Source: a virus. From it: a stretch of 64,000 bases of DNA. Shown in pieces: positions 150-55,473 of this stretch. Numbering within the stretch: position 1 is the first letter of the stretch; each line of letters opens with the position of its first letter. The position numbers and the translations under genes were made by a program. The notes under the pieces were generated by a model. It searched no databases. It had not been told where the DNA came from and was given only the letters and a program-made list of their open reading frames with translations. Location: IMG/VR virus record IMGVR_UViG_3300046028_008994. One strand, given 5' to 3'.

Positions 150-173
150 TCTTATAATATTTATAACCATATT

Positions 174-2492
174 ATGATTAGATTTACAACAATATTAAAA
201 GAATATAGTGATGCAATAATAAAAAAAGTTACGGACCGTTGGATAGGTGAAGATTCTAATGTTACTCCTGATTTAGCATTAAAGTTAATTAATACTTTTG
301 ACCAAAAAAAGGACTCACTATCTAGTAGATTACCAATACTTGTATTACCTGATGAATTAAAGCAAAGTAAGAAATACTTAGATATTACTCAATATTCATA
401 TGCTGATATAGTTAGATTACTTAAATCTATACCAGAAAACCCAGAGCAAATTAAAAAAGCAGCAGTAGCAAAGTTTGTATCAAAAGAAAACATTGATAAA
501 GAAACAGCTCAAAGTTATACTGCTCGTTTTATGAATAAAAGAGGAAAATTAAAACAAGGTATAACTAATGGTATTGAAGATAATGAGGGAAATAAATTAT
601 TTTCAAAAGAAGAAGTTATTAATTTTATCCCTAAACGTTTATTAGATAATAATTTATATTTTGATCCTAACAATTGGAGGTGGGATGATTTTGAACAGAT
701 TATGGATGCCTTATTCCCATCAGAAAGACAATCAACAGGAGAAGAAAACACAGCAACAACAGATGCTGATAAAATATATGATAAAGATGGAATTGAAATA
801 TACAAGGGTGATGATAAACATAAATGTATATCTTACAATCCTTCAGATCCTAAAACTAAATTAAAAAAATATTCTCATTGTGTAGCGCAACCAATAGGGA
901 GCAACATGTACGATAATTATAGATTCAAAGATATAACACCTACTTTTTATTTTTTATTTGATCGTAATAAACCATCAACAGGAATTAAACCTAGGTTTGA
1001 TGATAAATGGCATGTTTTGGTAATTCAAGTACTAATTAATGAACAAGGATATATTGTAACAAATGCTAATAATGATGGAGATAAATTTGCTAAAACATGG
1101 GAAGATATATCTAATATAGTCCCAGCAGATACATGGGATAAAATTAAAGGATTAAAAGACTATTTTAAACCAATAAAATTATCCCCAGAAGAAAGAGGAA
1201 GAAAACTAAATACTGGTAAGAATTTAAATGTAGATGAATTTAAAGAATTATCCCAAGATGAAAAAGAATTATATGTACAAGGTAAAGGATCTGAAGACAA
1301 ACTTACAGATGATATCTTAAATATATTACCAAATTATAAAATCAATTATGGTGGTATAACAAAAACATTAGCAAATCTAGCTATTGATAGTGGACAAAAA
1401 TACAAATATTCACAACTAAAAGATAATGAAGCCTTAGCAAAACGATATGCTATCTTCAGATTTAGACATACTAATTATGGTAATACTCCAATTCCACTTC
1501 CTTTTATTAAATATTTAGATGAACCAGCAAAAGAAAAATATTTAGAAACATTTGATGCATATTTAACATATGAATATATTGAAAAATATTTTGGACCAAA
1601 AGTAACAGAAAAATATGTAAATAATCAATTAGAAAAATTAGAGTATTTACCACCATCAGCAATCAAATACGTAAACGATCCTAAAAAACGCCAATTATTA
1701 GAAGCATATTCTAAATTATTTTCAAAGTGGGAATTAGATAGTGACACAAATATAAGTGATGAACAACTAGAAAATTTAAAAACTGCACCTGAACAAAAAA
1801 TAACTCCAAAACCCATAACTGAAAAAGAATGGAAAGGAATGCCGGATAATGATAGATCAAATATTATAAAAGTAGCAAAACAAATTAATGGTAAAGAACA
1901 ATACTTAACCTTATTATACGCTTTACCTTATGTTATACAAGATAAAACAAATTCATATGTCTTGTTACCTAAAACATCAGATACAAATGGAAATTGGGTA
2001 TTAGCAGATATTAAAGGTAATGTAGTTAAAGATAATATTAGTGGTAATGATAGCGTATTAGATGGTGAACCACTTGATTTTAATAATGGTTATATGAATA
2101 TGGACTCATTTAAACGTATATATAATATAAGTGATTTAAAAATAAAATCATCAAATAATGTAAGCGAAGAATTTCGCCGTTTACAACAATTAGCAGGTAT
2201 TATTACAGAGATGCCTGTAATAAGTAATCCTGTTAGTAAAAAAATCTATGGTATTGAAAAAAATTATTCACCATATGATTTTGGTCCTTTCACTGAGGAC
2301 GAAGCTAAAGCTAAGGCTATAGAATATGCTAATGAAGATCCTGGAAACACATATCAACCTAGATTATATAATGCTATGCGTGATGAATTACCTGCTATAG
2401 AAAGAATGGATATGCCTCGTATAGATAAAAATGGCAATTTAGAAGATGTTAATAATACACCTTTTTCACAAGGTGATTTAGATGATTACTAA
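174..2492 (+). CDS. Large hypothetical protein, candidate internal virion protein with leader MIRFTTILKE
   Basis: 772 aa ORF; ATATTTATA upstream; leader shared with 45088 and 55228; internal RLQQLAGIITEMP motif. Confidence 0.5.
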   Translation: MIRFTTILKEYSDAIIKKVTDRWIGEDSNVTPDLALKLINTFDQKKDSLSSRLPILVLPDELKQSKKYLDITQYSYADIVRLLKSIPENPEQIKKAAVAKFVSKENIDKETAQSYTARFMNKRGKLKQGITNGIEDNEGNKLFSKEEVINFIPKRLLDNNLYFDPNNWRWDDFEQIMDALFPSERQSTGEENTATTDADKIYDKDGIEIYKGDDKHKCISYNPSDPKTKLKKYSHCVAQPIGSNMYDNYRFKDITPTFYFLFDRNKPSTGIKPRFDDKWHVLVIQVLINEQGYIVTNANNDGDKFAKTWEDISNIVPADTWDKIKGLKDYFKPIKLSPEERGRKLNTGKNLNVDEFKELSQDEKELYVQGKGSEDKLTDDILNILPNYKINYGGITKTLANLAIDSGQKYKYSQLKDNEALAKRYAIFRFRHTNYGNTPIPLPFIKYLDEPAKEKYLETFDAYLTYEYIEKYFGPKVTEKYVNNQLEKLEYLPPSAIKYVNDPKKRQLLEAYSKLFSKWELDSDTNISDEQLENLKTAPEQKITPKPITEKEWKGMPDNDRSNIIKVAKQINGKEQYLTLLYALPYVIQDKTNSYVLLPKTSDTNGNWVLADIKGNVVKDNISGNDSVLDGEPLDFNNGYMNMDSFKRIYNISDLKIKSSNNVSEEFRRLQQLAGIITEMPVISNPVSKKIYGIEKNYSPYDFGPFTEDEAKAKAIEYANEDPGNTYQPRLYNAMRDELPAIERMDMPRIDKNGNLEDVNNTPFSQGDLDDY

Positions 2493-2514
2493 AATTTATA
2501 AAATTTAATATATT

Positions 2515-2548
2515 AAGGCTTGGGAAACCAAGCCTTTTTTTGTATGTT
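2515..2548 (+). promoter_or_regulatory. Terminator-like hairpin overlapping TTGG-N19-TATGTT promoter
   Basis: AAGGCTTGG-GAAA-CCAAGCCTT, T-run, TATGTT at 2543. Confidence 0.75.
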
Positions 2549-2562
2549 TATATCAAAAGGTT

Positions 2563-4285: not shown

Positions 4286-4300
4286 CATATGTATAATCAC

Positions 4301-4750
4301 ATGAAGCCAGCAGATAACTTTGACCTAAGACAATTTATTACCGAAGGTCGTTTATTAAAAGAAAACATAAACGAAGGTGATTTAAAAATGTATTATGATA
4401 TTCTTATGGATATTGGAGGTGAAGATTTAGCAGGTGAATATGAAGATTTAGCTAAAAAAGCTAAACAATACAAATCATTTGCTGAATTTGTAAAAAATGA
4501 TCTTGAAGTATTAAACCAAGATGATTCAGAACAAGTGGATGATATAAAAACAGATTTTGTATCAGCTAAAATTAGAAAAATGTCACCAGAAGAATTTACT
4601 ATGTTTGTTAAAAATATAGGAGATTATGATTTATGGAATAATGCTCCTAATGAAATTGATCCTTTTAATAATGTTGGTCAAAGAATGGATGTATTGTCTA
4701 ATGAAGATATTGAAAGTATCAATAAATATTTTGATGCTTTAGTAAAATAA
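4301..4750 (+). CDS. Acidic hypothetical protein with leader MKPADNFDLRQFITE
   Basis: ATATGTATA at 4287, ATG 4301; leader similar to 21279 and 24314. Confidence 0.6.
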   Translation: MKPADNFDLRQFITEGRLLKENINEGDLKMYYDILMDIGGEDLAGEYEDLAKKAKQYKSFAEFVKNDLEVLNQDDSEQVDDIKTDFVSAKIRKMSPEEFTMFVKNIGDYDLWNNAPNEIDPFNNVGQRMDVLSNEDIESINKYFDALVK

Positions 4751-4783: not shown

Positions 4784-4815
4784 AGTTTGGTGTCTCAAAC
4801 TTAAGTTCTTATATT
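4784..4815 (+). promoter_or_regulatory. TTGG-N19-TATATT promoter in a short hairpin
   Basis: AGTTTG-N6-CAAACT; TATATT at 4810. Confidence 0.65.
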
Positions 4816-13979: not shown

Positions 13980-14882
13980 ATGAATAAAAAATATGCTGTA
14001 CTCTCCTTAAGTGGAGGAATGGATTCAAGCACATTATTAATTAAACTCCTATCAGAAAACTATCAAGTAGTTGCACTCTCTTTTGATTATGGACAAAAAC
14101 ATAAAGTAGAATTAGAAAGAGCTACTGAATTGGTAAAATATATTAATAGTAGGAGCATTGGTACTAAAGGAGGATATGGAGGGTATGAATTAGTCAAACA
14201 TCAAATAATTACATTAGATGGTTTAGCACAATTACTTAATTCTTCATTAGTTGAAGGTGGTGCTGAAGTACCTGAAGGACATTACGCTGAAGAAAATATG
14301 AAGGATACTGTAGTACCTAATCGTAATAAAATATTTTCAAGTATTATTCAAGCAGTAGCTTTATCTATTTCTAATAAAAAAGAGGCGGAATGTGTTATTG
14401 CTTTAGGAGTACATAGTGGTGATCATTCTATTTATCCTGATTGCACAGAAGCATTTAGAAATGCGGATGAATATGCTTTTAAAATAGGAAATTGGGACTC
14501 AGAATTAGTAAATTATTACACACCATATATGGAAGGTAATAAATTTACAATCTTAGAAGATGGAGTTAAATGTTGTGATGAATTAGGTTTAGATTTTGAT
14601 GAAGTATATAAACGTACTAATACAAGTTATAAACCAATTAAATTAATAAAATCAGAAAAAAGATTTAAAGGAACAGAAGACGAAATAAATGTATTCTTTG
14701 AAGTATGGTACAGTGACTACAAATCAGCATCTTCAGTTGAACGTGTAGAAGCATTTATGAAATTAGGTCGTCCTGATCCTTGTGAATATGCTGACGAAAA
14801 TGGTCCTGTAGCTTGGGAACACGTAGTCTCTTACGTATGTTCAGTGCTAGAAAATCATGAGAAAGAAACGTCAAATAACTGA
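13980..14882 (+). CDS. queC: 7-cyano-7-deazaguanine synthase
   Basis: SGGMDS, FDYGQKH, VVPNRN, YPDC. Confidence 0.9.
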   Translation: MNKKYAVLSLSGGMDSSTLLIKLLSENYQVVALSFDYGQKHKVELERATELVKYINSRSIGTKGGYGGYELVKHQIITLDGLAQLLNSSLVEGGAEVPEGHYAEENMKDTVVPNRNKIFSSIIQAVALSISNKKEAECVIALGVHSGDHSIYPDCTEAFRNADEYAFKIGNWDSELVNYYTPYMEGNKFTILEDGVKCCDELGLDFDEVYKRTNTSYKPIKLIKSEKRFKGTEDEINVFFEVWYSDYKSASSVERVEAFMKLGRPDPCEYADENGPVAWEHVVSYVCSVLENHEKETSNN

Positions 14883-15060
14883 TAGACCAATGTATGCTAT
14901 TATAAATAAAAACGGTGAAGTATTTGCTGGATTATTAAGTGGTTATCCACAATGGTCTTCTGATTGGGATAATGTTAAACTATTATTTCGAGAAAATACT
15001 GCTTTTATTTATAATACCAACCCAACAGAATACGAATTAATAAATGAAAGTGAATTATAA
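14857..15060 (+). CDS. Hypothetical protein
   Basis: 67 aa ORF overlapping neighbours. Confidence 0.5.
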   Translation: MRKKRQITDRPMYAIINKNGEVFAGLLSGYPQWSSDWDNVKLLFRENTAFIYNTNPTEYELINESEL

Positions 15061-15283
15061 ACAGCCCAAATTCGATCCACAAACTGGAGAAATTAACCCT
15101 TATATGATAGATTTAGAATTAAAAACAAACAAACAACCAGATCCAAGAAAACACCAGCTAGTAAGCTTTATCAAATCAGGCATCAGAATCTCAGGCTACA
15201 TTTGTTTGCCTTTTGATTTAACAATTGCTTGCCTTATCTTGGTTTTCTCAGAATTAGTTGGTATATTAGAAGAATTAGTATAA
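15044..15283 (+). CDS. Small membrane protein
   Basis: Hydrophobic C-terminal half. Confidence 0.55.
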   Translation: MKVNYKQPKFDPQTGEINPYMIDLELKTNKQPDPRKHQLVSFIKSGIRISGYICLPFDLTIACLILVFSELVGILEELV

Positions 15284-15287
15284 CATA

Positions 15288-15331
15288 GTGTGCTCCTTGA
15301 TTTTTAACATATTTATAATCATGGAGCACAC
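15288..15331 (+). promoter_or_regulatory. Start-codon-sequestering hairpin with ATATTTATA motif in the loop
   Basis: GTGTGCTCC (15288-96) is the reverse complement of GGAGCACAC (15323-31); ATG at 15321. Confidence 0.75.
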
Positions 15332-15902
15332 CAAAATATATTATTTACATTATGGAGATAATATTCCTTTTTATGTAGGGAAAACTAGAAATGAATATCA
15401 TAGATTATTTAACCATAAAAAAACGTTTGGTAAAAACACTGTGATGGAAATAATAGATGAAGTTTTAAATTGGAGAAAATGGGAAGTGTATTATATTGAA
15501 GAATTTAAAAAACAAGGATATATTCTTCAAAATAAAAATAAAGGTGGAGGTGGCTCTGAAAAATGGGAAGATAAATCAATCCAAAAACTAAAATCTCACC
15601 CTACAAGAGGTAAAAATATAAGTGAATCTCATAAAGGAAAACAAAAATCACATAAAGGAAAAAAATTTAAAGAAGAACATAAACAAAAAATAAAAGCAAC
15701 AAGAGATTTTCTCAAAAATAGGCCTAATACTTGGATTAATACTCCTGTATTACAATATGATTTAGAAGGAAATTTTATTAAAGAGTGGTCATCTCAATTA
15801 GAGGCTACTAAATATTTAAATAAAACAGGAGATGGAATAGGAGCTTGTTGTAGAGGAAGACAAAAAAAAGCTTACAATTACATTTGGAAATTTAAAAAAT
15901 AA
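15321..15902 (+). mobile_element. GIY-YIG-type homing endonuclease with NUMOD1 tail
   Basis: KIYYL..PFYVGKT, LQNKNKGGGG, PVLQYDLEGNFIKEW..YIWKF. Confidence 0.8.
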
Positions 15903-15918
15903 ATTATATATTACAAAC

Positions 15919-16164
15919 ATGAAAAAAATATTTTTATTTACAGCAGAGTGGTGTCCTGGCTGTAAAACATTAGAACCAACAATGGATAGAGTTAGAGATG
16001 CAGGAGTAACTGTTGAAAAAATTAACATTGATTATGAATCAGATAGAGCTAGAGCAGCTAATGTTATGAGTATTCCAACAGTAGTATTAGCTGAAAACGG
16101 TCAAGAAATCAAACGCTTCGTAGGAGCTAAAACATACGAACAAGTATTAGAATTTATTAAATAA
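15919..16164 (+). CDS. Thioredoxin
   Basis: WCPGC and SIPT motifs. Confidence 0.9.
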   Translation: MKKIFLFTAEWCPGCKTLEPTMDRVRDAGVTVEKINIDYESDRARAANVMSIPTVVLAENGQEIKRFVGAKTYEQVLEFIK

Positions 16165-16631
16165 TGGGAAAATTTCAATCAACAAAATTATTTGACGGAT
16201 TCAGTTGTGTATTTCGTCAATGGAAAGCAGAAGGTACTCATTGCCAATTTTTACATGGTTATGGAGTATCATTTAGAGTATGGTTCGAAGGTGAATTAGA
16301 CGAACGTAATTGGGTATGGGATTTTGGAGGTATGAAACGTGCTAAAGGTACTATTGATGGTAAAAATCCTAAAGCATGGATGGATCATATGTTTGACCAT
16401 ACTGTTATAGCATCAATAGATGATCCTTACTTGGATAAATTTAAACAAATGGAAGTAGATGGTATAATCCAATTAAGAATAATTCCAGCAACAGGAGCAG
16501 AACAATTTGCAAAGTACATTTATGAAAAACTAAACACTTTTATTCAAGAAGAAACAAAAGGTAGAGTGAAAATAACAAAAGTAGAATTTATGGAGCATAG
16601 TAAAAATACAGCAATTTATACAGAAATATGA
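16164..16631 (+). CDS. queD: 6-carboxytetrahydropterin synthase
   Basis: HCQFLHGY, DFG, FDH, E near C-terminus. Confidence 0.85.
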   Translation: MGKFQSTKLFDGFSCVFRQWKAEGTHCQFLHGYGVSFRVWFEGELDERNWVWDFGGMKRAKGTIDGKNPKAWMDHMFDHTVIASIDDPYLDKFKQMEVDGIIQLRIIPATGAEQFAKYIYEKLNTFIQEETKGRVKITKVEFMEHSKNTAIYTEI

Positions 16632-17410
16632 GTTTAGGAAGAATAACAGATTACGATAAAAAATTACCAATAGTAGAATTATACTATTGTGTACAAAGTG
16701 AAGGTTCAAGAGCAGGCTTTCCAACAGTAGCCGTTAGAACAACAGGCTGTACTCACAGATGTTGGTTTGGTGAAGGTGGTTGGTGTGATTCATGGTATAC
16801 AAGCATTCATCCTGAAAAAGGTGGATTTACATTTAATGATATTGTTAAAATGTATGATAATAGACCTGATATTACTGAAATGATGTTAACAGGTGGTTCT
16901 CCAACAATGCATCCTGATTTAGTTAATGAATTAACACATTTTGCTAATGAAAGAGGTATTGTAATTACAATTGAAACTGAAGGTTCACATTTTCTAGAAA
17001 CAGATTTTCCAATTGGCTTAATTTCATTATCACCTAAATTTACTAATAGTGTTCCTAAATTAGGAGTATTAACACCAAAAGGAGCTGTAGTAGATCAAAA
17101 GATGATTGATCAACATAATAAATTACGTTTAAATAAAGACGCAATGTGTAAAACAATTGATTATCATACTAATTACCATTTTAAACCAGTGTGTAATCCT
17201 GTAGAAATGCCTGAAATTTGGGAAGAAATTGAAGCATTTAGAGTAGAGATGAATATTCCTAAAAACAAAACATGGATTATGCCTCCAGGTGATAATAGAC
17301 AAGAGTTAATAAGAGTATATCCAATGGTATTTGATTTTTGTGCTGAACATGGATATAATTTTACAGGTAGAGAACATATTATTGCCTTTGATACTCGTCG
17401 TGGAGTTTGA
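16628..17410 (+). CDS. queE: 7-carboxy-7-deazaguanine synthase (radical SAM)
   Basis: QSEG, GCTHRC...WCD, TGG.P, IETEG, SPK. Confidence 0.85.
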   Translation: MSLGRITDYDKKLPIVELYYCVQSEGSRAGFPTVAVRTTGCTHRCWFGEGGWCDSWYTSIHPEKGGFTFNDIVKMYDNRPDITEMMLTGGSPTMHPDLVNELTHFANERGIVITIETEGSHFLETDFPIGLISLSPKFTNSVPKLGVLTPKGAVVDQKMIDQHNKLRLNKDAMCKTIDYHTNYHFKPVCNPVEMPEIWEEIEAFRVEMNIPKNKTWIMPPGDNRQELIRVYPMVFDFCAEHGYNFTGREHIIAFDTRRGV

Positions 17411-18097: not shown

Positions 18098-18496
18098 ATG
18101 GTATTATTAACAACACATCCTGTTAAAAAATTAGATTTAGGTACTCATGGTAATCTATTTGGTGGTAAGTTACTCTCACTATTAGATTCAGCTGTAGCAG
18201 CTTATGCAATGGAGACATGCCATAGTAAAAATATGGTTACTGTTTCTATTGATAAATGTGAGTTTAAAAAACCTGCAAAAGAAGGTAATTTAGTAAAAAT
18301 ATATGCTGAATTAACTAAAATAGGAACTACATCAGCTCAATTTAATGTTGAGGCTAGAAATTATAATGTATTTACTGAAGAAGAAACTTGTATATTATCT
18401 ACTCATATGACTTTTGTTAGAATTGATGACGAAGGCGGACCAATTCCAATTTCAGAAACAGTTAGAAGAAAATTTAATTCTCCAGTTACAAAATAA
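18098..18496 (+). CDS. Acyl-CoA thioesterase (HotDog fold)
   Basis: HGNLFGG.LLS.LD, VTVSID, TFVRID. Confidence 0.85.
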   Translation: MVLLTTHPVKKLDLGTHGNLFGGKLLSLLDSAVAAYAMETCHSKNMVTVSIDKCEFKKPAKEGNLVKIYAELTKIGTTSAQFNVEARNYNVFTEEETCILSTHMTFVRIDDEGGPIPISETVRRKFNSPVTK

Positions 18497-18508
18497 TATT
18501 TATAATAT

Positions 18509-18748
18509 ATGAAAATAACGTATTTTTACCATAAAGGATGTCGTCAATGTAAAGACTTAGCTCCTATCATAAATGAATTTCAAGCTCCTCTTAACATTAA
18601 TTTGGTAGACACATATACTGATAGTATGTTAATGGAAGAAAATACAATTAACTGGGTTCCTACTCTTGTGATTGAAGATAAAAACGGAAAACACAAATTT
18701 GAAGGACCAGCTGAAGTTAAAGAAGTTTTGAGAAAATTAGTTTTATGA
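18509..18748 (+). CDS. Thioredoxin/glutaredoxin-like protein
   Basis: CRQC, WVPT; ATATTTATA upstream. Confidence 0.75.
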   Translation: MKITYFYHKGCRQCKDLAPIINEFQAPLNINLVDTYTDSMLMEENTINWVPTLVIEDKNGKHKFEGPAEVKEVLRKLVL

Positions 18749-20132: not shown

Positions 20133-20810
20133 ATGTCAGATAAGAAAAAATTCGATTTAGAATGTGTTACGCCCGGTTTTGCCAATGGCTTAGCACCAGG
20201 TGCACCATTCACCGAATCTCAAAAATGGGAAATGGTAGTAGAGGCTGAAGAAGCATATGGTAAATTTCTAGATGCATTAAAATGTGATTGGAGAAATGAC
20301 CCAAATTCATCAAACACACCACACAGAGTAGCAAAAGCATATGTTTTTGATTTATGGAAAGGTAGATACGAGGATATGAGTGGAATAACTTCATTTCCAT
20401 CAGATGGTTATGATGGTATTGTAATCGAACGTAACATTCCATTAACAAGTATGTGTTCACATCACCACCAAACAATTGGAGGTGTAGTTCATGTTGGTTA
20501 TATTGTTGGTGAAAATGGTAGTGTAATCGGTTTATCAAAATTAAATCGTATTGTAGAACATTTTGGGCGCAGAGGTGCTATTCAAGAACAATTAACATCA
20601 GCAATTCATCAAGCAGTAGATAAAGTTTGTGAAAACAACAGAGGTGTTATTGTAACAGTAGTAGCAACACACAATTGTGTAAAATGTAGAGGTGTTAAAC
20701 ATCAAGGTGCATCAATGGTTACAACTAAAGCATCAGGAGTGTTTATGGATAATGCTAATCAAGCACGTACAGAGTATTTTGATAGTTTAAAAATTAATGG
20801 AAGTTTATAA
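20133..20810 (+). CDS. folE: GTP cyclohydrolase I
   Basis: TPHRVAK, SMCSHH, GLSKLNR, IQE, H.C..CRG. Confidence 0.92.
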   Translation: MSDKKKFDLECVTPGFANGLAPGAPFTESQKWEMVVEAEEAYGKFLDALKCDWRNDPNSSNTPHRVAKAYVFDLWKGRYEDMSGITSFPSDGYDGIVIERNIPLTSMCSHHHQTIGGVVHVGYIVGENGSVIGLSKLNRIVEHFGRRGAIQEQLTSAIHQAVDKVCENNRGVIVTVVATHNCVKCRGVKHQGASMVTTKASGVFMDNANQARTEYFDSLKINGSL

Positions 20811-21264: not shown

Positions 21265-21278
21265 TAATATTTATAATC

Positions 21279-21569
21279 ATGAAAAAAGCAGATAACTTCA
21301 ACCCTGGGAAGTGGTTAGTAGAAAACAAATTAACTAATCAATCACAGTTGAATGAAATGCCTATAATAATGGATCCTAATAGAAAAGTAGATTTAAATTC
21401 AATAGAACTTGATGGTGTTGATCCATCTGATTATCCTGATTTTTCTGATGCTTATGTAATATATGCTCAATACACAGATGGGACCCCACTAACAGAAGAT
21501 GAATTAGATGAATTTAATGATAAACATTATGATATAGCTCAGGAATTAGCTTTAGAAAGATTTTACTAG
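21279..21569 (+). CDS. Acidic small protein with leader MKKADNFNPGKWLVE
   Basis: ATATTTATA-ATC-ATG; body DYPDFSDAY. Confidence 0.6.
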   Translation: MKKADNFNPGKWLVENKLTNQSQLNEMPIIMDPNRKVDLNSIELDGVDPSDYPDFSDAYVIYAQYTDGTPLTEDELDEFNDKHYDIAQELALERFY

Positions 21570-21596: not shown

Positions 21597-21630
21597 AAGG
21601 CTTGGGAAACCAAGCCTTTTTTTGTATATT
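21597..21630 (+). promoter_or_regulatory. Terminator-like hairpin plus promoter for polB
   Basis: AAGGCTTGG-GAAA-CCAAGCCTT, T-run, TATATT at 21625. Confidence 0.75.
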
Positions 21631-21638: not shown

Positions 21639-24299
21639 ATGTATCAATCAATTTATTATGATAAAGACGAAAAACAATATTATCTAAGAGATGATAGTTG
21701 GGAAGGCTTTAAGGAATTCCAATATTGGCCTACTTATTATCAAAAAGATTATGAAGGTGAATTTGAAACATTAGAAGGTGAACGAGTATCTGCTGTTAAT
21801 CGTATTAAAGATTGGAAAGATACAAGTTATTTTGAAAAAGATGTTGATAGAACCACACGTTTATTAGTAGACCAATATTATGAATCAGACGAAACACCAA
21901 AATTCCACAATATTGTTTATTTAGATATAGAGTGTGAAATATTAGGTGCATTAACCGAAGAAAGTATTAAACAAGCATTAGCTAAAATAACAGCACTTGC
22001 TTTATATGATAATAATTCTAAAAAATACTATTGTTTAATATTAGATGAAACAGGTACTATGGAAGAAGTACATGATGATACTAAAGAGGTAATACCTTAC
22101 ACTTCCGAATCTGATTTATTACATGGTTTTTTAAATAAATGGTATCAATTAGATCCTACAATTGTTACAGGATGGAATAGTATGTTTTTTGATATACCTT
22201 ATTTGTATTATAGAATAAGTAAAGTATTAGGTACAGATATAGCTAAAACATTATCTCCAATCAATAAAATAAAAATAACACCATATTCAGAACAACCAGT
22301 AAGTATTGGAGGGGTTGCGCATTTAGATTATATGCTTTTATTTAAAAAGTTTATTACTAAACAAGAACCAACTTATCGATTAGGTGATATTGGTACTAAG
22401 TATGTTAAATTAGGTAAAATTGAATATGATGGTTCATTAGATAATTTATTTAGAGAAGATGTAAATAAGTTTATTGAATATAATGTTCGAGACGTTGAAA
22501 TTATTGTTGAATTAGAGAAAAAATTAAAATTTATTGAATTAACAATTACAATTTGTCATTTGTGTCATACTGATTACGAACAGATTTACTTATCAACAAT
22601 GTTAAATGAGGGAGCAATTTTAACATATTTAAAACGTAAAGGAATTGTTTCACCTAATAAACCTACAACAATGAATCCTGCTTTAAGGGATTTAAGTGTT
22701 AAAAAAGCAAAATGGGAATATGAGCAAGGTAATATTACTAAAGAGGAATTAGAAGAAATTATATTCTTAGCAGAATATGCAGGTGGTTATTTAAAAGATC
22801 CTATTCCTGGTTTATATGAGTGGGTTATTGACTTAGACTTTACCTCGTTATATCCTTCAATCATTCGTTCACTTAATATGGGTATTGAAACTCTAGTAGG
22901 TCGTGTTGTAAATGGAGGTAAATTTGATAATCAATGGTCTTTAAAGGAATTAAAACAAATGGATCCTAATAAAGTAGTTGTTATTGAAAAAATTAAAAAG
23001 AATAGAACAATTGCTACTTCACAAATTACAGTAGGCGGATTAATTAGTATTATTGAAAGTAATGATTTAATAATTTCTGCTCCTGGTGTTATATTCCGTA
23101 AAGATAAATCTAGTATTGTTTGTGAAATTTTATCTGATTGGTTTGCTAAACGTCAAGAATATAAAGATTTGATGAAACAAGCATACAAATCAGGTAATAA
23201 AGAGTTAGGTGATTTTTATAATAGTAGACAACATGCTTACAAGATTAAATTAAATGACGTTTATGGTGTATTTGCTATTAACGGATGGAGATACACAGAT
23301 GGTAATAAGTTTATATCTAAAGCTATTACACTAACAGGTCAACGATTAACACAAGAATCAATTAAATTTGTAAATATTTGGTTAAATGAACAATTAGGTA
23401 CAGAAGATAAAGATTACATTGTAACATCAGATACTGACTCGTTGTTTATTCAAGTTAAAGATTTAATATTATTCCGTAAACCAGAATTAGCCACTGCAGA
23501 TCAAGAAACAATTGTACAAGAGGTATTAAAAGTTGCTACTGAAATACAATCATTAGCAAATAATTATTTAAATACTTTAGTACAAGAGTTATTTAACATT
23601 AAATTTCCTGACGAACCACATTATTTTGAATTAAAACAAGAGGTTGTATTAGATAGAGGTTATTTTGCAGGTAAAAGAAGATACGCAATGCATATTGTTA
23701 ATAAAGAAGGTGTAACAGTAGATGAACTAGATGTTAAAGGATTAGATTTGATGAAATCAAATTTCCCTCCTATATTTAGAAAATTTGGTGAACATATTAT
23801 TAATGAAATTATGTTTGGTAGAGAAAAAACTGATATTGATAAACAAATTCTAGATTTTAGAACATCAATAAGAACAGTTGATTGGAGAACAATATTAAAA
23901 CCAACAGGTTTAAAGAAGATGAAAGAATATATTGCATCACCTCCTATGACTGGTGATATATTTTCAAGATTAGGTAACAAATGTCCAATTAATACAAAAG
24001 CTGCTATTTATTATAATGATATTTTACGATTTAAAAAGTTAGATAAAAAATATCCAACATTTCAAATTGGTGATAAAATGTTTATAGCTTACTTAAAAGA
24101 CAACCCATACCGAGTTGATGTTGTAGGATTTAATGGGTATAATGATCCACCTGAAATAATGGAATTTGTTGAAAAATATATAGATAGAGACGGTTTATTT
24201 GATTCAGTTATGAAAAATAAATTAGAATCATTATATTCAGATTTAGGATGGGGTGCTGTAGTATTAAATCAAAATATTAACAAATTCTTTAAGTTTTAG
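21639..24299 (+). CDS. Family B DNA polymerase (gp43-like)
   Basis: ExoI DIE, FDIPY, YN..D, DFTSLYPS, K..LN..YG, SDTDS, KGL. Confidence 0.95.
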   Translation: MYQSIYYDKDEKQYYLRDDSWEGFKEFQYWPTYYQKDYEGEFETLEGERVSAVNRIKDWKDTSYFEKDVDRTTRLLVDQYYESDETPKFHNIVYLDIECEILGALTEESIKQALAKITALALYDNNSKKYYCLILDETGTMEEVHDDTKEVIPYTSESDLLHGFLNKWYQLDPTIVTGWNSMFFDIPYLYYRISKVLGTDIAKTLSPINKIKITPYSEQPVSIGGVAHLDYMLLFKKFITKQEPTYRLGDIGTKYVKLGKIEYDGSLDNLFREDVNKFIEYNVRDVEIIVELEKKLKFIELTITICHLCHTDYEQIYLSTMLNEGAILTYLKRKGIVSPNKPTTMNPALRDLSVKKAKWEYEQGNITKEELEEIIFLAEYAGGYLKDPIPGLYEWVIDLDFTSLYPSIIRSLNMGIETLVGRVVNGGKFDNQWSLKELKQMDPNKVVVIEKIKKNRTIATSQITVGGLISIIESNDLIISAPGVIFRKDKSSIVCEILSDWFAKRQEYKDLMKQAYKSGNKELGDFYNSRQHAYKIKLNDVYGVFAINGWRYTDGNKFISKAITLTGQRLTQESIKFVNIWLNEQLGTEDKDYIVTSDTDSLFIQVKDLILFRKPELATADQETIVQEVLKVATEIQSLANNYLNTLVQELFNIKFPDEPHYFELKQEVVLDRGYFAGKRRYAMHIVNKEGVTVDELDVKGLDLMKSNFPPIFRKFGEHIINEIMFGREKTDIDKQILDFRTSIRTVDWRTILKPTGLKKMKEYIASPPMTGDIFSRLGNKCPINTKAAIYYNDILRFKKLDKKYPTFQIGDKMFIAYLKDNPYRVDVVGFNGYNDPPEIMEFVEKYIDRDGLFDSVMKNKLESLYSDLGWGAVVLNQNINKFFKF

Positions 24300-24313
24300 T
24301 AATATTTATAATT

Positions 24314-24835
24314 ATGAAAGATAATTTTGATGTTCATAAATGGAATAATCAACGAAAACTAACAGAAGCTAATATTTTTGAAATAAAAATAAATAATCCT
24401 TTATCATTAGTAAGATCAAATTTTGACTATGATGGAACTTTTCTATATTTTACCACACAAGAGGGAGGTAAACTATTAAAAAAATTATTACCAATGCCAT
24501 CACCATCTATTTTATCAATTTACTATAAAAAAATACTACCAGAAAATCCTGAGTATCCTAATGTTGTTCAAGAAGCAAAAAAAGCACTTAATGTTATATT
24601 ATTATCTTCCTTAAAAGATAATCCTAATATGACTTTTCGTTTATCAACAATTAAAGAAGACTCTTTATCAAATGGTATGGTTGTTGTTTTAGATATGGAT
24701 AAAGAAAATAATAATGAAGAAAAAAATATTATAATGAGAACTATTAATGACGCTTTAAGTTCATCTGTTGATGATGTTTTAGAAGATATAGTAAATGGAA
24801 ATGAGGCAGGAGATTATGAAGAATATGATGAATAA
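24314..24835 (+). CDS. Hypothetical protein with leader MKDNFDVHKW
   Basis: ATATTTATA-ATT-ATG; leader similar to 4301 and 21279. Confidence 0.6.
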   Translation: MKDNFDVHKWNNQRKLTEANIFEIKINNPLSLVRSNFDYDGTFLYFTTQEGGKLLKKLLPMPSPSILSIYYKKILPENPEYPNVVQEAKKALNVILLSSLKDNPNMTFRLSTIKEDSLSNGMVVVLDMDKENNNEEKNIIMRTINDALSSSVDDVLEDIVNGNEAGDYEEYDE

Positions 24836-24857: not shown

Positions 24858-24891
24858 AAGGCTTGGATAACTAAGCCTTTTTTTGTATATT
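24858..24891 (+). promoter_or_regulatory. Terminator-like hairpin plus promoter
   Basis: AAGGCTTGG-ATAA-CTAAGCCTT, TATATT at 24886. Confidence 0.75.
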
Positions 24892-24906
24892 TATAATAAA
24901 TAAGTT

Positions 24907-44425: not shown

Positions 44426-45076
44426 ATGCCCAAAGCAAAACCATTAAAAAAAGAAGAAATCATAGCGGCAATGGCTAAAACCAAATCCGTTCGTTCTGCT
44501 TGCCGTTACTTAAATTGTTCATACCAACACTTAAAAAAATGGATGAAATTTTATGAAGGTGAAGATGGTAAATCTTTGTTTGAACAACATAAAAATCCTG
44601 CAGGTAAAGGTATTCCTAAGTTTACTAATAATTCACCATGGAAACGAAAAGAACCTGCTATATTAGATATTGTTGAAGGTAGAGTAGATCCATCTCATTT
44701 AAACCCTCAAAAAGTTAAATATAAACTTATAGAAGCGGGTTATTTAAAAGAGGAATGTAGTACGTGTGGTTTTCATGAACGACGCGTTATAGACTATAAA
44801 ATGCCGTTAATTATGCATTTTAAGAATGGTAACAAACAACATTACACTCTTAATAATCTTCAAATGCTTTGTTATAATTGTTATTTTCTTTATGTAAATA
44901 GTATTTTTACTGAAAAAGAAATCGAAAACATGGAAGATCATGTTCCGCGTAATGGAAGTAAAGATATCCCTGAAAAATTACAAATTGATGAATATACTCA
45001 GAAAAGATTAGATGAATTAGGAATATTTGGTAAAGACGATACAGAAGATCCTTATAATTTAGTATCTTACAAATAA
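44426..45076 (+). CDS. HTH plus degenerate HNH/zinc domain protein
   Basis: SVRSACRYLNCSY HTH; CSTCG...HFKNGN...NLQMLCYNCY. Confidence 0.6.
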   Translation: MPKAKPLKKEEIIAAMAKTKSVRSACRYLNCSYQHLKKWMKFYEGEDGKSLFEQHKNPAGKGIPKFTNNSPWKRKEPAILDIVEGRVDPSHLNPQKVKYKLIEAGYLKEECSTCGFHERRVIDYKMPLIMHFKNGNKQHYTLNNLQMLCYNCYFLYVNSIFTEKEIENMEDHVPRNGSKDIPEKLQIDEYTQKRLDELGIFGKDDTEDPYNLVSYK

Positions 45077-45087
45077 TATTTATAAGT

Positions 45088-45522
45088 ATGATTAAATTTT
45101 TAAATATATTAGAGGAATCAATTGATATTTACTCTTTAGATAAATTAAATTCTTTTGCTAATATTACAATATATACTGAAAATGCTGATGAATTTAGGGT
45201 TAGTTTTTCTCCTAAAAATTCTCCTAATAAATATCAATTATCTATTTATAAAATAGATGAATATTATGAAGTACAATTTGGAATAATAGAAAAAGGAATA
45301 ATTAAAACTAGTGTTTTAGTAAATGATAATTTTACTTTATCTGTATTATCTATAGTTTTTAGTTTATTAAGATATTATATTGATGAATATTCTGTTTTTG
45401 CTTTTGAGTTTGAGGCATATGATATACGACCTAAATTATATAATTTATATCTTGATAAAAATTTTACAGATTATGATAAATATAAAATGGGTCCTAATGA
45501 ATTTAGATTTATTAAAAAATGA
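45088..45522 (+). CDS. Hypothetical protein with leader MIKFLNILEE
   Basis: ATATTTATA-AGT-ATG. Confidence 0.55.
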   Translation: MIKFLNILEESIDIYSLDKLNSFANITIYTENADEFRVSFSPKNSPNKYQLSIYKIDEYYEVQFGIIEKGIIKTSVLVNDNFTLSVLSIVFSLLRYYIDEYSVFAFEFEAYDIRPKLYNLYLDKNFTDYDKYKMGPNEFRFIKK

Positions 45523-47284: not shown

Positions 47285-47333
47285 TCTACTTAAAAACAGG
47301 TGTATTACTTATTTTTTATAATATGTATTATTG

Positions 47334-48089
47334 ATGAAAACAAATATATATTATCTATGTAGAGAAGATAAAGTTCCATTTTATGTAGGAAAAGCTAATA
47401 ACTTAAAAATTAGAGAAAACCAACATAAATTAAAATTAGGGAAAAACATTATTTTAGAAGCAATAGATGAAATACCAACAAATGAATGGAAATTTTGGGA
47501 AAAACATTATATTTCTTTATTTAAAAGTTGGGGTTTTATTTTAGTAAATAAAAATGAAGGTGGTGGAGGAGAATTATATAGATCCGAAGAAACTAAACAA
47601 AAATTAAGAAAACCTAACCCAAAAGCAGGTAGAAGAGGTCCATTAAATCAAGAAATAAAAAATAAAATAAGTAAATCAAAAACAGGAAAACATCATACTG
47701 AAGAAACAAAATTAAAAATATCAAACTCAAATAAAGGAAAATTGGTTTCACAGGAAACATTAGATAAAAAAAGAAAGGCAATGGTTGGTAAAAAATTTAC
47801 TGAGGAAACTAAATTAAAGATGAGTATGTCTTCAAAAGGTAAAACTAAATCTCTACTTCATAAAGAAAAAATAAAAATACATCTTGATAATATTAAAGAT
47901 AAAATAAGAAAAGCAAAGAGTAAACCTGTTTTACAATATGATTTAGAAGATAATTTTATTAAAGAATGGAATAGTATGACTGAAGTAAGTAATACTCTAA
48001 AAGAAATAAAAACATCAGGGATAAGTCGTTGTATATGTGGTAATCAAAATTATTATAAAGGATTTATATGGAAAATAAAAATAATTTAA
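47334..48089 (+). mobile_element. GIY-YIG-type homing endonuclease with NUMOD3 repeats and NUMOD1
   Basis: IYYL...PFYVGK, NKNEGGGG, repeated EETK.K.S, PVLQYDL..FIKEW. Confidence 0.8.
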
Positions 48090-49724: not shown

Positions 49725-49726
49725 AA

Positions 49727-50953: not shown

Positions 50954-50977
50954 GAAACTTTAAAATATTTTCAAATT

Positions 50978-51011: not shown

Positions 51012-51019
51012 TACGATAT

Positions 51020-51235: not shown

Positions 51236-51284
51236 TGTTCCAAACAAATCACAATAACATACAACAATAAAACAATAGAAAGTT

Positions 51285-51497: not shown

Positions 51498-51503
51498 AAA
51501 GTT

Positions 51504-52540: not shown

Positions 52541-52814
52541 AAGAAAAGAAAAAAAAGACCGAATAAAACAAAGATGGGATGCACTTCAAACCGAGATTGA
52601 CAATTTATTTAATTCAATTATGTATGAATCATTTACAGAATGGAAGGGTATTATTGAAATCGAAATCATACAAATCATTAAGAAATATAATGTTGTGGCT
52701 TGGTATGGTAGAGAATTGAAAGTAATTACATCAATACACCCAGTTGATAATGAATACACTTTTGATGTTAGAACAATCAAAGGTAATTGGAGAGTAATGA
52801 AAATTATTAAATAA
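52533..52814 (+). CDS. Hypothetical protein (cassette)
   Basis: 93 aa ORF. Confidence 0.55.
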   Translation: MSKRKEKKDRIKQRWDALQTEIDNLFNSIMYESFTEWKGIIEIEIIQIIKKYNVVAWYGRELKVITSIHPVDNEYTFDVRTIKGNWRVMKIIK

Positions 52815-52833
52815 ATTAAGCTAATAGAAAGTT

Positions 52834-52983
52834 ATGAATGAAATACAATATTTTTTAAAAAAGGCAATAAGTTCTTGTAGAAAAGGTAAATTTTACTACA
52901 GACCTTGGAAACAATTACTAACTATTATTCTACTACAAATTAAATGTAGGATATTAACAGGAAAAACATTAGACAAACTATGA
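52834..52983 (+). CDS. Small hypothetical protein (49 aa), ATGA-coupled to thyA
   Basis: MNEIQYFLKK...TLDKL, starts in the sixth repeat. Confidence 0.5.
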   Translation: MNEIQYFLKKAISSCRKGKFYYRPWKQLLTIILLQIKCRILTGKTLDKL

Positions 52984-54149
52984 ACAATCTAGATAAACAA
53001 TACACAGACCTACTTCAAGACATTCTTGATAATGGTGTACAAAAAGGAGACCGCACAGGAACTGGAACCATTTCAGTATTCGGTAGACAAATTCGTCATA
53101 AAATGAGTGATGGTTTTCCATTACTTACAACTAAGAAGATGCCTTTCAAAACAATTGTAACTGAATTGTTATGGTTTTTAAGAGGTGATACAAACATTAA
53201 GTTCCTTGTGAATAATGGTTGTCATATTTGGGATGGTGATGCATATAAAAATTATTTGAATGTGGTTATGTTTGAAAAACCTGACTATCTACACGAAAAA
53301 CACGGGCATCTTAATATGAGTGTAAAAAAAGAAGGTGATAACTATCTACCATTTACACAAGAAGAATTTATCAATAAAATTAAAACTGATGATAAATTTA
53401 GACATTGGGGTGAGTTAGGTCCGATTTATGGTAAACAATGGAGGCGTTGGACTAAAAAGAAAATGTGGTTATCAACCGATGGCTCATATGAAAACATTTA
53501 TGATGAAGCTGACCAAACGGTTATTGACCAAATAGCTGGATTAATCAACGACCTTAAAACAAATCCAGATTCAAGACGATTGATGGTTAATGCTTGGAAT
53601 GTAGGTGAATTAGATGAAATGGTACTTCCACCTTGTCATTATGGATTTCAACTTTATACAAGAGAGTTGAGTTTTGATGAAAGATGTAAAATACAAATCG
53701 ATAGATTAGATGGGATGTATTCATCAGAAAAAGATTTGTTTATCCATCATTCAATTAATGCGGTAAAACAAATAAAAATGGATAAAAACAATATCCCAAC
53801 CAGAGCAATCTCTTTAATGTGGAATCAACGTTCAGTAGATACTGGGTTAGGATTAGGTTTTAATATAGCTAGTTATGGATTGTTATTAGAGATTTTTGCT
53901 AAAGAAGTAAATATGGTTCCTGATGAGCTTATAGGTAATTTAGGAGATGTACATTTGTATTTGGATCATGTAGAACCTATTAAAGAACAATTAACAAGAG
54001 AACCATTCCAATTACCTAAACTAAAAATTAAACAACATTCTATTGATGAACCAAGTCCTTTAACAAAACCTCAATATTGGCATCCTGATGATTTTGTAGT
54101 TGAAAATTACCAATCTCATCCTACTATTAAACTTCCCTTATCAAATTAA
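52980..54149 (+). CDS. thyA: Thymidylate synthase with three large insertions
   Basis: DRTGTGT, FPLLTTK, ELLWFL, GPIYG.QWR, SRR, LPPCH, QRS.D, FNIASY, HLY. Confidence 0.95.
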   Translation: MNNLDKQYTDLLQDILDNGVQKGDRTGTGTISVFGRQIRHKMSDGFPLLTTKKMPFKTIVTELLWFLRGDTNIKFLVNNGCHIWDGDAYKNYLNVVMFEKPDYLHEKHGHLNMSVKKEGDNYLPFTQEEFINKIKTDDKFRHWGELGPIYGKQWRRWTKKKMWLSTDGSYENIYDEADQTVIDQIAGLINDLKTNPDSRRLMVNAWNVGELDEMVLPPCHYGFQLYTRELSFDERCKIQIDRLDGMYSSEKDLFIHHSINAVKQIKMDKNNIPTRAISLMWNQRSVDTGLGLGFNIASYGLLLEIFAKEVNMVPDELIGNLGDVHLYLDHVEPIKEQLTREPFQLPKLKIKQHSIDEPSPLTKPQYWHPDDFVVENYQSHPTIKLPLSN

Positions 54150-54202
54150 TGTAGAAAATGTATTTTTCATATATTTATAATCAACGGAATGTTGATAGAT
54201 TT

Positions 54203-54982
54203 ATGGAAAATTATTATTTATATTATCATAAAAACCCACTAACTAAAGAGTTATTTTATATTGGGATAGGAACAAATAAAAGAGCATGGGATTTTACCTC
54301 AGGAAGAAATCCTCATTATAAAAATTATATTAAAAAACATGGTGAACCTATAGTGGATATAATTAAAGAAAATCTTACTAAAGAAGAAGCATGTTCTATT
54401 GAAATGGAATATATAGCTAAATATGGAAGAAAAGGAATAGAACCTAAAGGTATATTACTAAACAAAAGTATTGGAGGAGAGATTATTGCTTTAGGAAATA
54501 AATTTACTGAAGAGCAAAAACAAAAAATAGTTCAAGCTAAAACAGGACAAAAATATAATATACCTGAAGGAAGAGCCCATGGTAGTAAAGGTAAACCTAA
54601 ACCTGATGGATTTATGAGTGATGAAATAAAAGAAAAAATTAGCAAAGGAAATAAAGGAAAAAAACATAGTAAAATTCACAGTAATAAAGGAATACCTATC
54701 TCTGAAGATACTAAGCAAAAAATAAGTAAGGCTAATTCTAAACCCAAACCAGAAGGTTTTGGAAATACTATTAAACAAAATAGAAACCATAAATTAATAG
54801 GAGAAAAAAATAGTAAACCTATCATTCAATTAGATACTCAAAATAATATAATTTGTGAATTTAAATCTGTTAAAGAAGCACTTAAATATTTTAAAAAATC
54901 AATAAATAACTCTTGCATAACAGCTTGCCTAAAAGGAAGACAAAAAACAGCTTTTGAGTATGTTTGGAAATACAAAGAATAA
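54203..54982 (+). mobile_element. GIY-YIG-type homing endonuclease with NUMOD3/NUMOD1 (likely start MENYY)
   Basis: YLYYH....FYIGIG..KRA, E.E.I..YGR, LLN...GG, KPIIQLD..YVWKY. Confidence 0.8.
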
Positions 54983-54999
54983 TTCGTATATTAATAACA

Positions 55000-55212
55000 A
55001 TGATTAAATTAAAGTTAATAAATCCCGTAGGTGATATCGTTAAAGATATTGAATTATCAGAATGGACAGATATTGAAAGTTTTAAATCAAGTCATAGATT
55101 TATATTAGAGTCTAGCGATGGTTCAATATTCAATTACTCAGAAAAAGAATGGATGGAATTACCTCCTGATTATCAATCACACCCAACAATTAAAGCACCT
55201 TTATCTAATTAA
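55000..55212 (+). CDS. Hypothetical protein ending in a copy of the ThyA C-terminus
   Basis: ...DYQSHPTIKAPLSN vs ThyA NYQSHPTIKLPLSN. Confidence 0.6.
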   Translation: MIKLKLINPVGDIVKDIELSEWTDIESFKSSHRFILESSDGSIFNYSEKEWMELPPDYQSHPTIKAPLSN

Positions 55213-55227
55213 TTAATATTTATAATC

Positions 55228-55473
55228 ATGATAAAATTAACTGACATTTTGGATGAAATTAAAACAGATATCAATGAAATAAGCGATGTGAAATATGCTT
55301 ATTATATGCTTAAATATGATAATAATGAAAAAACATATATGACTAGTGGTTATCTTAAAGTATTAAGTTTTATAAGTAGTAATAATATAACTGATTACGA
55401 ATTATATGGTAGAAAATTTAATCCTAAAAATCGTTCAAATGAATGGGAATTTATTGAAAAAACTAATGTCTAA
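55228..55473 (+). CDS. Hypothetical protein with leader MIKLTDILDE
   Basis: ATATTTATA-ATC-ATG. Confidence 0.55.
   Translation: MIKLTDILDEIKTDINEISDVKYAYYMLKYDNNEKTYMTSGYLKVLSFISSNNITDYELYGRKFNPKNRSNEWEFIEKTNV

Follow-up and report, generated by a model that had tools for sequence, protein, structure and literature searches.

Why should six unrelated genes, dispersed through the replication region of a phage genome, share little more than the first residues of their products and a short motif upstream of them? The question is raised by a window of 64,000 nucleotides, the whole stretch of DNA analysed here, which corresponds to bases 53853-117852 of a complete virus record of 171,684 bp with direct terminal repeats (IMGVR_UViG_3300046028_008994). 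The genome has a G+C content of 29% and bears almost every gene on a single strand, and the window covers a replication and nucleotide-metabolism region, with genes for a T4-type PolB, GroEL, ribonucleotide reductase, a gp32-like single-stranded DNA-binding protein (SSB), dUTPase, thymidylate synthase, and queuosine precursors. The answer is probably that the six open reading frames (ORFs) are part of a larger set, at least 19 late genes across the genome, the products of which carry N-terminal prohead-targeting tags that are clipped off, in a multi-class enlargement of the capsid-targeting sequence (CTS) known from phage T4.

All six ORFs lie on the plus strand, each of them 2-7 nt behind the motif ATAT(T/G)TATAA; an initial annotation of the window had placed their starts just after ATAT(T/G)TATA. 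The part that they share is restricted to the N-terminal 10-26 residues, every leader (6/6) ends in (L/I)-x-E, and, once the leaders have been removed, BLASTP shows no similarity among the remaining portions, which are referred to here as cargos. Cassette 1 encodes a two-module protein of 772 amino acids (aa) at positions 174-2492, which begins with the tag MIRFTTILKE (174-203) and stands behind the late-type motif ATATTTATAA at 157-166, ending 7 nt before the ATG. Cassette 2 (4301-4750) encodes a 149-aa protein with the divergent tag MKPADNFDLRQFITEGRLLKENINE (4301-4375), and a variant of the motif, ATATGTATAA (4287-4296), ends 4 nt before it. In the other four cassettes, the motif ATATTTATAA ends 2 nt before the ORF, that is, at 21267-21276 for cassette 3 (96 aa, 21279-21569; tag at 21279-21356, ending in QLNE, followed by a cargo domain of the DGVDxxDYPDFSDAY type), at 24302-24311 for cassette 4 (173 aa, 24314-24835; tag MKDNFDVHKWNNQRKLTEANIFE at 24314-24382, with the junction IKINNP), at 45076-45085 for cassette 5 (144 aa, 45088-45522; tag MIKFLNILEE at 45088-45117), and at 55216-55225 for cassette 6 (81 aa, 55228-55473; tag MIKLTDILDE at 55228-55257). 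The annotation had sorted these leaders into two classes, A and B. Class A, which comprises the ORFs at 174, 45088, and 55228, was recovered as such, while the single class B splits into a class B1 of the FL.ENKL type (4301 and 21279) and a class B2 with DNFDVHKW (24314); the tag of cassette 2 obtained the fourth-best class B score across the proteome with a position-specific scoring matrix (PSSM).

The same peptides are found well beyond the window. An all-against-all alignment of N-termini with a low threshold gave too much noise for classes to be defined, and patterns and logos were used instead; when the tagged ORFs are counted by strict patterns, the genome holds seven of class A (one of them at the genome end), at least four of a related class A' (M..DLR..I.E..-type), four of class B1, one of class B2, and four of a class C with the pattern EF.R[LM]Q.LAGI. 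This last tag also occurs within the 772-aa protein of cassette 1, in the form EEFRRLQQLAGIITE (2166-2210, plus strand; residues 665-679), where it is followed by MPVISNP. The class A tags are 10 residues long and those of classes B1 and B2 23-26 residues, and when the genome is translated in all six frames, the pattern of class A, I[KRS][FL]..I[LI].E, has seven matches directly after the first Met and one that is spurious. At the conserved residues of the leaders the synonymous codons vary; for example, the leader at 21279 and a paralogous leader at genome position 119611 have four synonymous differences within 19 identical residues, which indicates that selection acts on the peptide. The conservation extends past the (L/I)-x-E in two cases (QLNE/MPIIMDP and NIFE/IKINNP, the slash marking the proposed cut), and the conserved IK(I/V)xNP or MPIIxNP that follows the Glu may represent the primed side of a protease site or a linker. 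A corresponding module-junction motif, [LIVFM]xE-[IM][KPTR][IVA]xxP, is present five times in the proteome versus 0.16 times in shuffles, for example at 24374-24400 of the window and at residue 119 of the ORF at 134807-135505 of the genome.

The nature of the phage, and in particular of its head genes, bears on the function of such peptides. This uncultured lake phage is a member of the T4 superfamily, with a genome of 171.7 kb, and its host is probably a member of the Bacteroidota. Among the matches listed for its PolB, the identity is 33% to that of a Microcystis phage and less than 30% to those of cyanomyophages, and no T-even PolB scores above the latter. The closest cultured relative is the Flavobacterium phage vB_FspM_immuto (hereafter immuto), with a syntenic head module and a scaffold that is 55% identical over the matched parts. 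The order of the head genes, TerL, portal, S77 prohead protease, scaffold, and gp23-type major capsid protein (MCP), is also syntenic with that of T4. The initial annotation had named the lack of a gp21-like prohead protease as evidence that would speak against its proposal, and the genome does encode one of the gp21 family (Peptidase_S77, 100.5 bits versus a cut-off of 27; phrog_207, 3.8e-57). The propeptide of the MCP aligns with that of T4 gp23, with QLVTE/T available at the equivalent cut.

A survey of IMG/VR with the pattern [RK][QK]FL[TVS]ENK returned 371 stretches, 236 of which were confirmed. In 80 class B1 loci, 109 ORFs were recognised (87 unique), with the motif no more than nine residues from the Met in 81 and internal to long ORFs in six, and the tagged ORFs often form tandem arrays of up to four. 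Over the 81 unique proteins, the logo has nine invariant positions, and every column carries 1.58 bits or more as far as L(+15)-x-E(+17), the value falling below 0.8 bits from +18 onwards, and the first hydrophobic-x-E ends 9-10 residues after ENK in 93% of the proteins versus 17% of the controls, in a set of loci ranked by their similarity to a 30-residue query that itself included the L-x-E site. The drop in information immediately after L-x-E implies that a gp21-type site marks the exact end of the tag. Over hundreds of contigs that differ in the upstream DNA, the class B peptide is retained. For class C, the pattern R[LM]Q[QEK]LAGI gave more than 597 stretches in IMG/VR, and in eight confirmed loci it heads small proteins, in arrays, once occurring twice within a single ORF. 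The B2 tag of the ORF at 24314 also heads unrelated proteins of 243-456 aa in four contigs (L088-L091); only three homologs of this ORF were found, and the only divergent one is 79% identical over the tag versus 52% over the whole protein.

Class A, on the other hand, is confined to this phage and to its nearest relative, the genome G012 (PolB 60% identical), and is not found in four immuto-like genomes. In G012 the pattern identifies seven class A ORFs, all of them on the forward strand, and a reversed-pattern control identifies none; the cargos mostly differ from those of the present phage. Just downstream of PolB, where cassette 4 lies here, the late motif in G012 is followed by the class A tag MIKLIDILKE on a cargo of 181 aa that has no relation to the one in cassette 4, so that, as far as these two sequences go, this slot is kept while both tag class and cargo are exchanged. 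A locus search gave no relatives of the 45088 and 772-aa proteins, and neither megablast of the window nor tblastn of the 21279 protein gave a match in cultured phages; a class B1 search of a collection of 50,697 phage records matched only the four records of immuto (one phage, three isolates).

The tagged genes are also linked physically to the genes for head assembly. In three relatives (L065, L066, and L040), a tagged homolog of the 21279 cargo lies directly downstream of the S77 protease gene, before those of the scaffold and the MCP, and in a fourth (L079) it is within about 1.1 kb of the protease gene. The slot that follows the protease gene is occupied by a B2-tagged gene in immuto and by two B1-tagged genes in a further relative (G001). 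In the present genome the space between the protease and scaffold genes (genome 18880-19246) measures about 360 bp and contains a terminator-like hairpin, with no convincing ORF. The S77 protease is encoded in every tag-bearing record that is at least 90% complete, and in five of the larger fragments as well.

The scaffold itself provides a further link. That of this phage ends in LNRWQILAGIKKI, which can be written as PILE followed by VNDQLNRWQILAGIKKI and the stop codon, and ten distinct scaffolds, its own included, end in [VI][IL]xE, 16 residues, and RMQKLAGIIK. Immuto likewise has this tail, in addition to tags of classes B1, B2, and A'. These tails match the class C tag, from which it follows that the class C tags are copies of the scaffold tail. 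The hydrophobic-x-E precedes the tail in the scaffold and follows it in the class C tags (LAGIKE/, LAGINE/, LAGIITE/), and a cut at either of these predicted sites would free the body of the protein from the tail peptide. In phage 80alpha, the N-arm of the capsid protein is bound by a helix-and-hook made of the last 16-21 residues of the scaffold, which end in RIIK, and the CpmB protein of SaPI1 copies this tail to enter the procapsid (PMC5644958). By analogy, the same capsid-binding role is proposed here for the class C tail. A comparable origin of class B, as a copy of an internal scaffold helix (NLLNAKLLYVNK), was considered and rejected, given that a PSSM scan placed the scaffolds at background level.

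The cargos, in turn, occur behind different tags. The 21279 cargo domain has 315 relatives in IMG/VR, some of which are stand-alone, untagged 66-aa proteins, while others follow B1, A', or C-like tags and others again are embedded in proteins of 700-1000 aa, the N-terminal part of which matches a "virion structural protein" PHROG. When the 772-aa protein was searched with phmmer against 1.84 billion representatives, 385 hits were obtained, and the border that they draw between module 1 (about residues 5-665 by these hits and about 11-660 as a part of cassette 1) and module 2 (688-772) coincides exactly with the internal tag. Module 2 is found on its own with a tag of class B1 (P0072), class C (P0109), or A'-like type (P0085) in front of it; other copies are untagged (P0114 and P0138) or, like the one here, part of a fusion made through a class C tag (P0027). 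The homologs of module 1 start with class A tags, and in several of them successive modules are linked by the junction [LIV]xE-I[KR][IV]xxP, which is repeated up to four times. In an AlphaFold2 (AF2) model of the 772-aa protein, with a predicted local distance difference test score (pLDDT) of 80.8, residues 1-8 are disordered, module 1 is folded (about 90), and a short helix lies at the internal tag.

No recognisable domain or fold was found in the six cargos. Pfam and PHROGs gave sub-threshold hits only for the six cassette proteins, and Pfam gave nothing relevant for nine homologs. For the 772-aa protein, a PDB sequence search, the ESM Atlas, Foldseek against PDB, and VIA-align wide gave no assignable function, the best structural match being to generic helical repeats (Z = 5.7); a BLASTP comparison with T4 Alt shows no similarity. 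A 333-aa protein of immuto (NC_055915, 117631-118632; L092, 1006-2007), annotated as a PduO-type cob(I)alamin adenosyltransferase, begins with a class B1 tag and would be a possible enzyme cargo. A head-module protein of 186 aa (genome 16126-16686) has SGFTSGGTGEN near its N-terminus, a sequence almost identical to the MCP segment SGFTSGTQGEN located just after the predicted maturation cut of the MCP, and its homologs in L066 and immuto bear an A' tag.

The motif upstream of the cassettes would fit expression at the time of head assembly. The 10-mer ATATTTATAA is present 12 times in the window versus 3.0 expected, a number that is reached in none of 100 shuffles, and the motif lies within 35 nt upstream of all six leader genes versus three of the 99 other ORFs of the window (Fisher p = 5e-8). 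The association of motif and tag also holds genome-wide (odds ratio 15, Fisher p = 5e-7). Its core, ATTTATAA, is found within 40 nt of 33 ORF starts in the genome, including that of the portal gene and those of large unannotated ORFs of the late region, and the motif also precedes unannotated large ORFs at genome 28629-47226, which are candidate tail or baseplate genes. It stands, in addition, 3 nt before an untagged thioredoxin-like gene (PF00085, window 18496-18748), and is thus not exclusive to tagged or structural genes.

Downstream of the cassettes, the initial annotation had placed a hairpin behind four of the six, and three of these were borne out. The robust hairpins, terminator-like and all on the plus strand, consist of a 9-bp GGCTTGG stem with a U run and follow the ORFs at 174, 21279, and 24314. 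The first, AAGGCTTGG-GAAA-CCAAGCCTT with its T run, is merged with the early-promoter-like word TTTTGTATGTTTA (2515-2550, z = -3.0), the second (21597-21618, z = -5.4, 0/200 shuffles) is followed by TTTTTGTATATTAA, and the third is accompanied by the early-promoter-like TTTTGTATATTTA (24858-24893, z = -2.6). The hairpin that follows the ORF at 4301 (4784-4801) is indistinguishable from shuffles (z = -0.7). The early-promoter-like word found behind the hairpins occurs eight times in the window versus 0.5 expected, which identifies it as a general punctuation of the early region. A putative terminator hairpin with a putative early-type promoter behind cassettes 1, 3, and 4 would let a late gene sit within an early transcription unit.

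The elements described above may be combined in a mechanism. Genes that share their upstream motif with the portal gene and with large genes of the late region would be expressed while the proheads assemble, and the spacing of 2 nt would imply nearly leaderless mRNAs. If the T4 CTS and the tail common to the 80alpha scaffold and CpmB are taken as models, the tag may then attach its protein to the scaffold core during assembly or to the inside of the shell. Where the tag ends, the gp21-type S77 protease would cut after (L/I/V)-x-E, a site that is read from the sequence; in T4, exchanging the Glu for Asp stops the cleavage while loading still takes place. The same protease may also cut at the internal tags, splitting multi-module proteins such as that of 772 aa. 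The freed cargo would either stay in the head and leave it with the DNA or be expelled like the fragments of the scaffold, and the acidity of the cargos and the head-module position of one of them favour caution with regard to injection.

The closest precedent for this arrangement is found in T4. In the T4 record, the N-terminal peptides were verified as MLKEQLIAE for gp22, MAKINELLRE for gp24, MKTYQEFIAE for IPII and IPIII, and MELITELFDE for Alt, with FLTE/AEIGG at the corresponding site of gp23. For loading, the first ten residues of IPIII are enough, with residues 8 and 10 governing the processing, and the T-even phages have diverse internal proteins, the CTS alone being conserved (PMC9026906, PMC3012670, PMC5694885, PMC9958956). 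Both the CTS of IPI-III and the propeptides of Alt and gp24 are removed by gp21 (Mullaney & Black 1996, reviewed in PMC9026906, PMC3012670, PMC5694885). The present system resembles that of T4 in the short N-terminal peptide on unrelated proteins, in its hydrophobic-x-Glu end, in the gp21-family protease, and in cargos that vary between relatives, and the class A tag MIKLTDILDE has the same length of 10 residues as the propeptides of Alt, gp24, IPII, and IPIII and resembles them in residue pattern. It differs from T4, however, in having at least four classes of tag instead of one, two of them 23-26 residues long, and at least 19 tagged genes instead of about five. One of its classes copies the C-terminal tail of the scaffold, and internal tags serve as junctions in multi-module proteins. 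The genes are dispersed as late-type cassettes within the replication region of a phage that is only distantly related to T4, and the small, basic, DNA-associated character of IPI-III is not shared by its cargos, which are acidic.

Similar strategies are known in other systems. The reuse of a scaffold C-terminal peptide by another protein for entry into the procapsid is common to 80alpha/CpmB and to the class C tags, the tail found here also ending in IIK; here, however, the candidate capsid-binding copy is N-terminal or internal, it precedes a predicted protease site, and it serves the phage itself rather than a satellite. In phage P1, an N-terminal signal loads the non-structural protein DarB into the head, although P1 lacks a tag family common to many cargos and the tag sequences are dissimilar. 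In encapsulins, short cargo-loading peptides dock diverse cargos inside a shell of the HK97 fold, although these peptides are usually C-terminal and uncleaved, and the shell is a bacterial nanocompartment rather than a virion. In phiKZ, 201phi2-1, and SPN3US, the inner-body or ejection proteins have long propeptides that are cleaved (PMC5694885, PMC10052503), and many head-internal proteins are cut after Glu by a gp21-related protease, as proposed here. These phages have paralogs with conserved N-termini and several cleavage sites per propeptide, and they differ in that the propeptides mostly exceed 100 residues, with an (S/A/G)-x-E site, and do not form a small set of interchangeable tags. 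The promoter-early stem-loop (PeSL) regulatory cassettes of the T4-type phages RB49 and phi1 (PMC2839356) are similar with regard to the flanks, given that a repeated unit of stem-loop terminator and early-type promoter borders small variable genes and could mediate their shuffling, although here the unit follows genes that have a late-type motif of their own, and its elements are candidates drawn from the sequence.

Several observations weigh against the proposal of cleaved prohead-targeting tags. The late motif is absent from eight of the 19 tagged ORFs, and, where it lies 2 nt from the ATG, it could act as the putative promoter only with nearly leaderless transcripts. Classes B2 and C are conserved beyond the proposed cut (E/IKINNP and E/MPIIxNP), which means that the cut may lie elsewhere or that the tag may be longer. 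The likeness of class A to the T4 propeptides extends over 10 residues, which is too short for statistics, classes B and C have no T4 counterpart, and class B shows no likeness to the scaffold that the PSSM scan could detect. All of the tag-bearing records are relatives of one another, and the co-occurrence of S77 is thus not independent evidence. The six cargos are acidic, with isoelectric points (pI) of 4.0-6.4 as opposed to 9.3-9.5 for T4 IPII and IPIII (computed values), which agrees with a role as expelled core components no less than with one as injected proteins associated with the DNA. Neither for this phage nor for immuto were virion, prohead, or expression data found, and the literature likewise yielded no virion proteomics of immuto phages. 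With respect to what the initial annotation had inferred, modular capsid-loading tags of several classes, cut at (L/I)xE, are favoured by every in-silico test that was run, while the delivery of effectors, possibly with an anti-defence role, is unsupported, given the acidic cargos, the lack of a recognisable domain, and the 21279 cargo, which behaves like a component of the head module.

In a different account, the tagged proteins are accessory components of the prohead core or scaffold and the tags are co-assembly helices, the proteins being degraded or expelled at maturation in the manner of T4 gp67 and gp68, with no delivery to the host. Such an account retains the steps of targeting and cleavage and denies the role of cargo or effector. 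The acidity of the cargos recalls that of the middle region of the scaffold, the 21279 domain lies between the protease and scaffold genes in relatives, the long proteins that contain it match a PHROG annotated as a virion structural protein, and several homologs of module 1 end in scaffold-like tails. It is nevertheless rather unlikely, given that the cargos turn over rapidly between close relatives, that more than 19 different core parts would be unusual, and that neither a well-folded globular module of 660 residues nor the immuto protein annotated as an enzyme is expected of scaffolding parts. A second protease suggests another possibility, namely, that the tags are degrons or adaptor-binding peptides, recognised for example by a phage ClpP-family protease, which would time the destruction of late proteins and scaffold without any loading of the capsid. 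A gene of this family overlaps the end of cassette 6, with which it is probably co-transcribed, and a terminal peptide common to the C-terminus of the scaffold and to the N-termini of other proteins resembles the logic of degrons. The gp21-type (L/I)xE at the tag boundary, the internal tags between modules, and the clustering of tagged genes, in many relatives, next to those for the S77 protease and the head all argue against this, and the removal of T4-type scaffolds is performed by gp21 (PMC9958956), so that the degron reading must be judged improbable.

The common 5' ends might also be explained at the level of the nucleic acid or its translation, as a promoter and initiation cassette for leaderless late mRNAs that has been spread by recombination and encodes a functionless peptide. 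The motif is indeed 2 nt from the ATG in four of the six cassettes, two of which adjoin homing endonuclease genes, and repeated regulatory elements resembling PeSLs (PMC2839356) bound the cassettes. However, the conserved residues differ in their synonymous codons, eight of the 19 tagged ORFs do without the motif, the class B peptide persists over hundreds of contigs with different upstream DNA, and the same peptides are found inside long ORFs and at the C-termini of scaffolds, where no initiation occurs, which leaves this explanation with very little probability. An effect of chance, arising from N-termini rich in Lys, Ile, Leu, and Glu in a genome of such low G+C content, has in its favour that random N-terminal pairs often reach moderate alignment scores and that about one 25-residue stretch in four should contain a hydrophobic-x-E. 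This reading was rejected, and retains next to no credence, in view of the class A pattern found directly after the start Met only (seven matches, with one spurious), its counts in G012 (seven forward, none in reverse or with the reversed pattern), the nine positions invariant in the 81 class B proteins, and the excess of the junction motif over shuffles. Prohead-targeting tags remain the favoured reading given the S77 protease, the motif shared with structural genes, and the conservation that ends at L-x-E, and given, too, that the same cargo occurs behind different tags, that tagged genes adjoin the protease gene in relatives, and that one tag copies the tail of the scaffold.

The surroundings of the cassettes vary. 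The initial annotation had described single insertions between core genes, which agrees with the position of cassette 2 between a 158-aa ORF and the gp32-like SSB gene, of cassette 3 between the dUTPase and PolB genes, and of cassette 4 between PolB and a 246-aa ORF. It does not apply to cassettes 5 and 6, which lack a terminator and overlap the next ORF, the former with an ATGA at 45519 and the latter with its stop codon, which overlaps the start of a ClpP-family gene at 55466. An HNH endonuclease gene (window 44426-45076) and a homing endonuclease gene (54158-54982) lie directly upstream of cassettes 5 and 6, respectively, and may help to move the neighbouring cassettes. The ClpP-family gene (PF00574, 90 bits; window 55466-55972) begins 8 nt before the stop of cassette 6, an overlap that makes its co-transcription from the late-type motif of this cassette probable, and it provides the phage with a second protease beside the S77 head protease.

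Other features of the window concern the phage more broadly. Its PolB gene (window 21639-24299) is shared with G012 at 60% identity, and a T4-type PolB is absent from the immuto-like genomes (G001, G011, G013, and NC_055915), the head modules of which are otherwise close, which indicates that the DNA polymerase has been swapped between related phages. Genes for 7-deazaguanine precursors are found at 13980-17410 and 20133-20810 of the window (QueC, PF06508; PTPS/QueD-like; radical-SAM QueE-like; and GTP cyclohydrolase). A preprint on 7-deazaguanine modification of DNA reportedly mentions immuto by name, and the precursor genes of the window fit such a modification. A family of GIY-YIG-like paralogs (..IYYLH..DNIPFYVGK..) has at least three copies in the genome, including those at 15288-15902 and 47331-48089 of the window.

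The principle of loading proteins into a head through a terminal signal is already known from the T4 CTS, P1 DarB, and the propeptides of giant phages, and no paper was found that describes a multi-class, scaffold-mimicking, dispersed version of it. A broader scheme may be put forward tentatively, with more doubt than confidence, in which the aquatic T4-like phages of Bacteroidota possess a programmable form of head loading. A handful of interchangeable address peptides that end in protease sites, at least one of them copied from the capsid-binding tail of the scaffold, would deliver dozens of fast-changing proteins with the DNA, including polyproteins cut at internal tags, and new cargo genes would be able to land anywhere as cassettes of late motif, tag, and terminator.

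The copy of the scaffold tail suggests how tags of this kind arise and where they bind, and the arrangement of the cassettes would illustrate a way of placing late genes within early regions. If the reading given here is true, the rules by which the payload is loaded could be read from sequence, the tags would provide a list of candidate virion-internal proteins in metagenomes, and proteins of choice could be brought into phage heads in Bacteroidota by means of the short tags, as has been possible with the T4 CTS in E. coli. The lineage concerned consists of hundreds of uncultured contigs from lakes and the sea, with immuto as its only cultured member in the collection of 50,697 records, and, if the tags work as proposed, it carries a protein payload that is much larger and more varied than that of T4.

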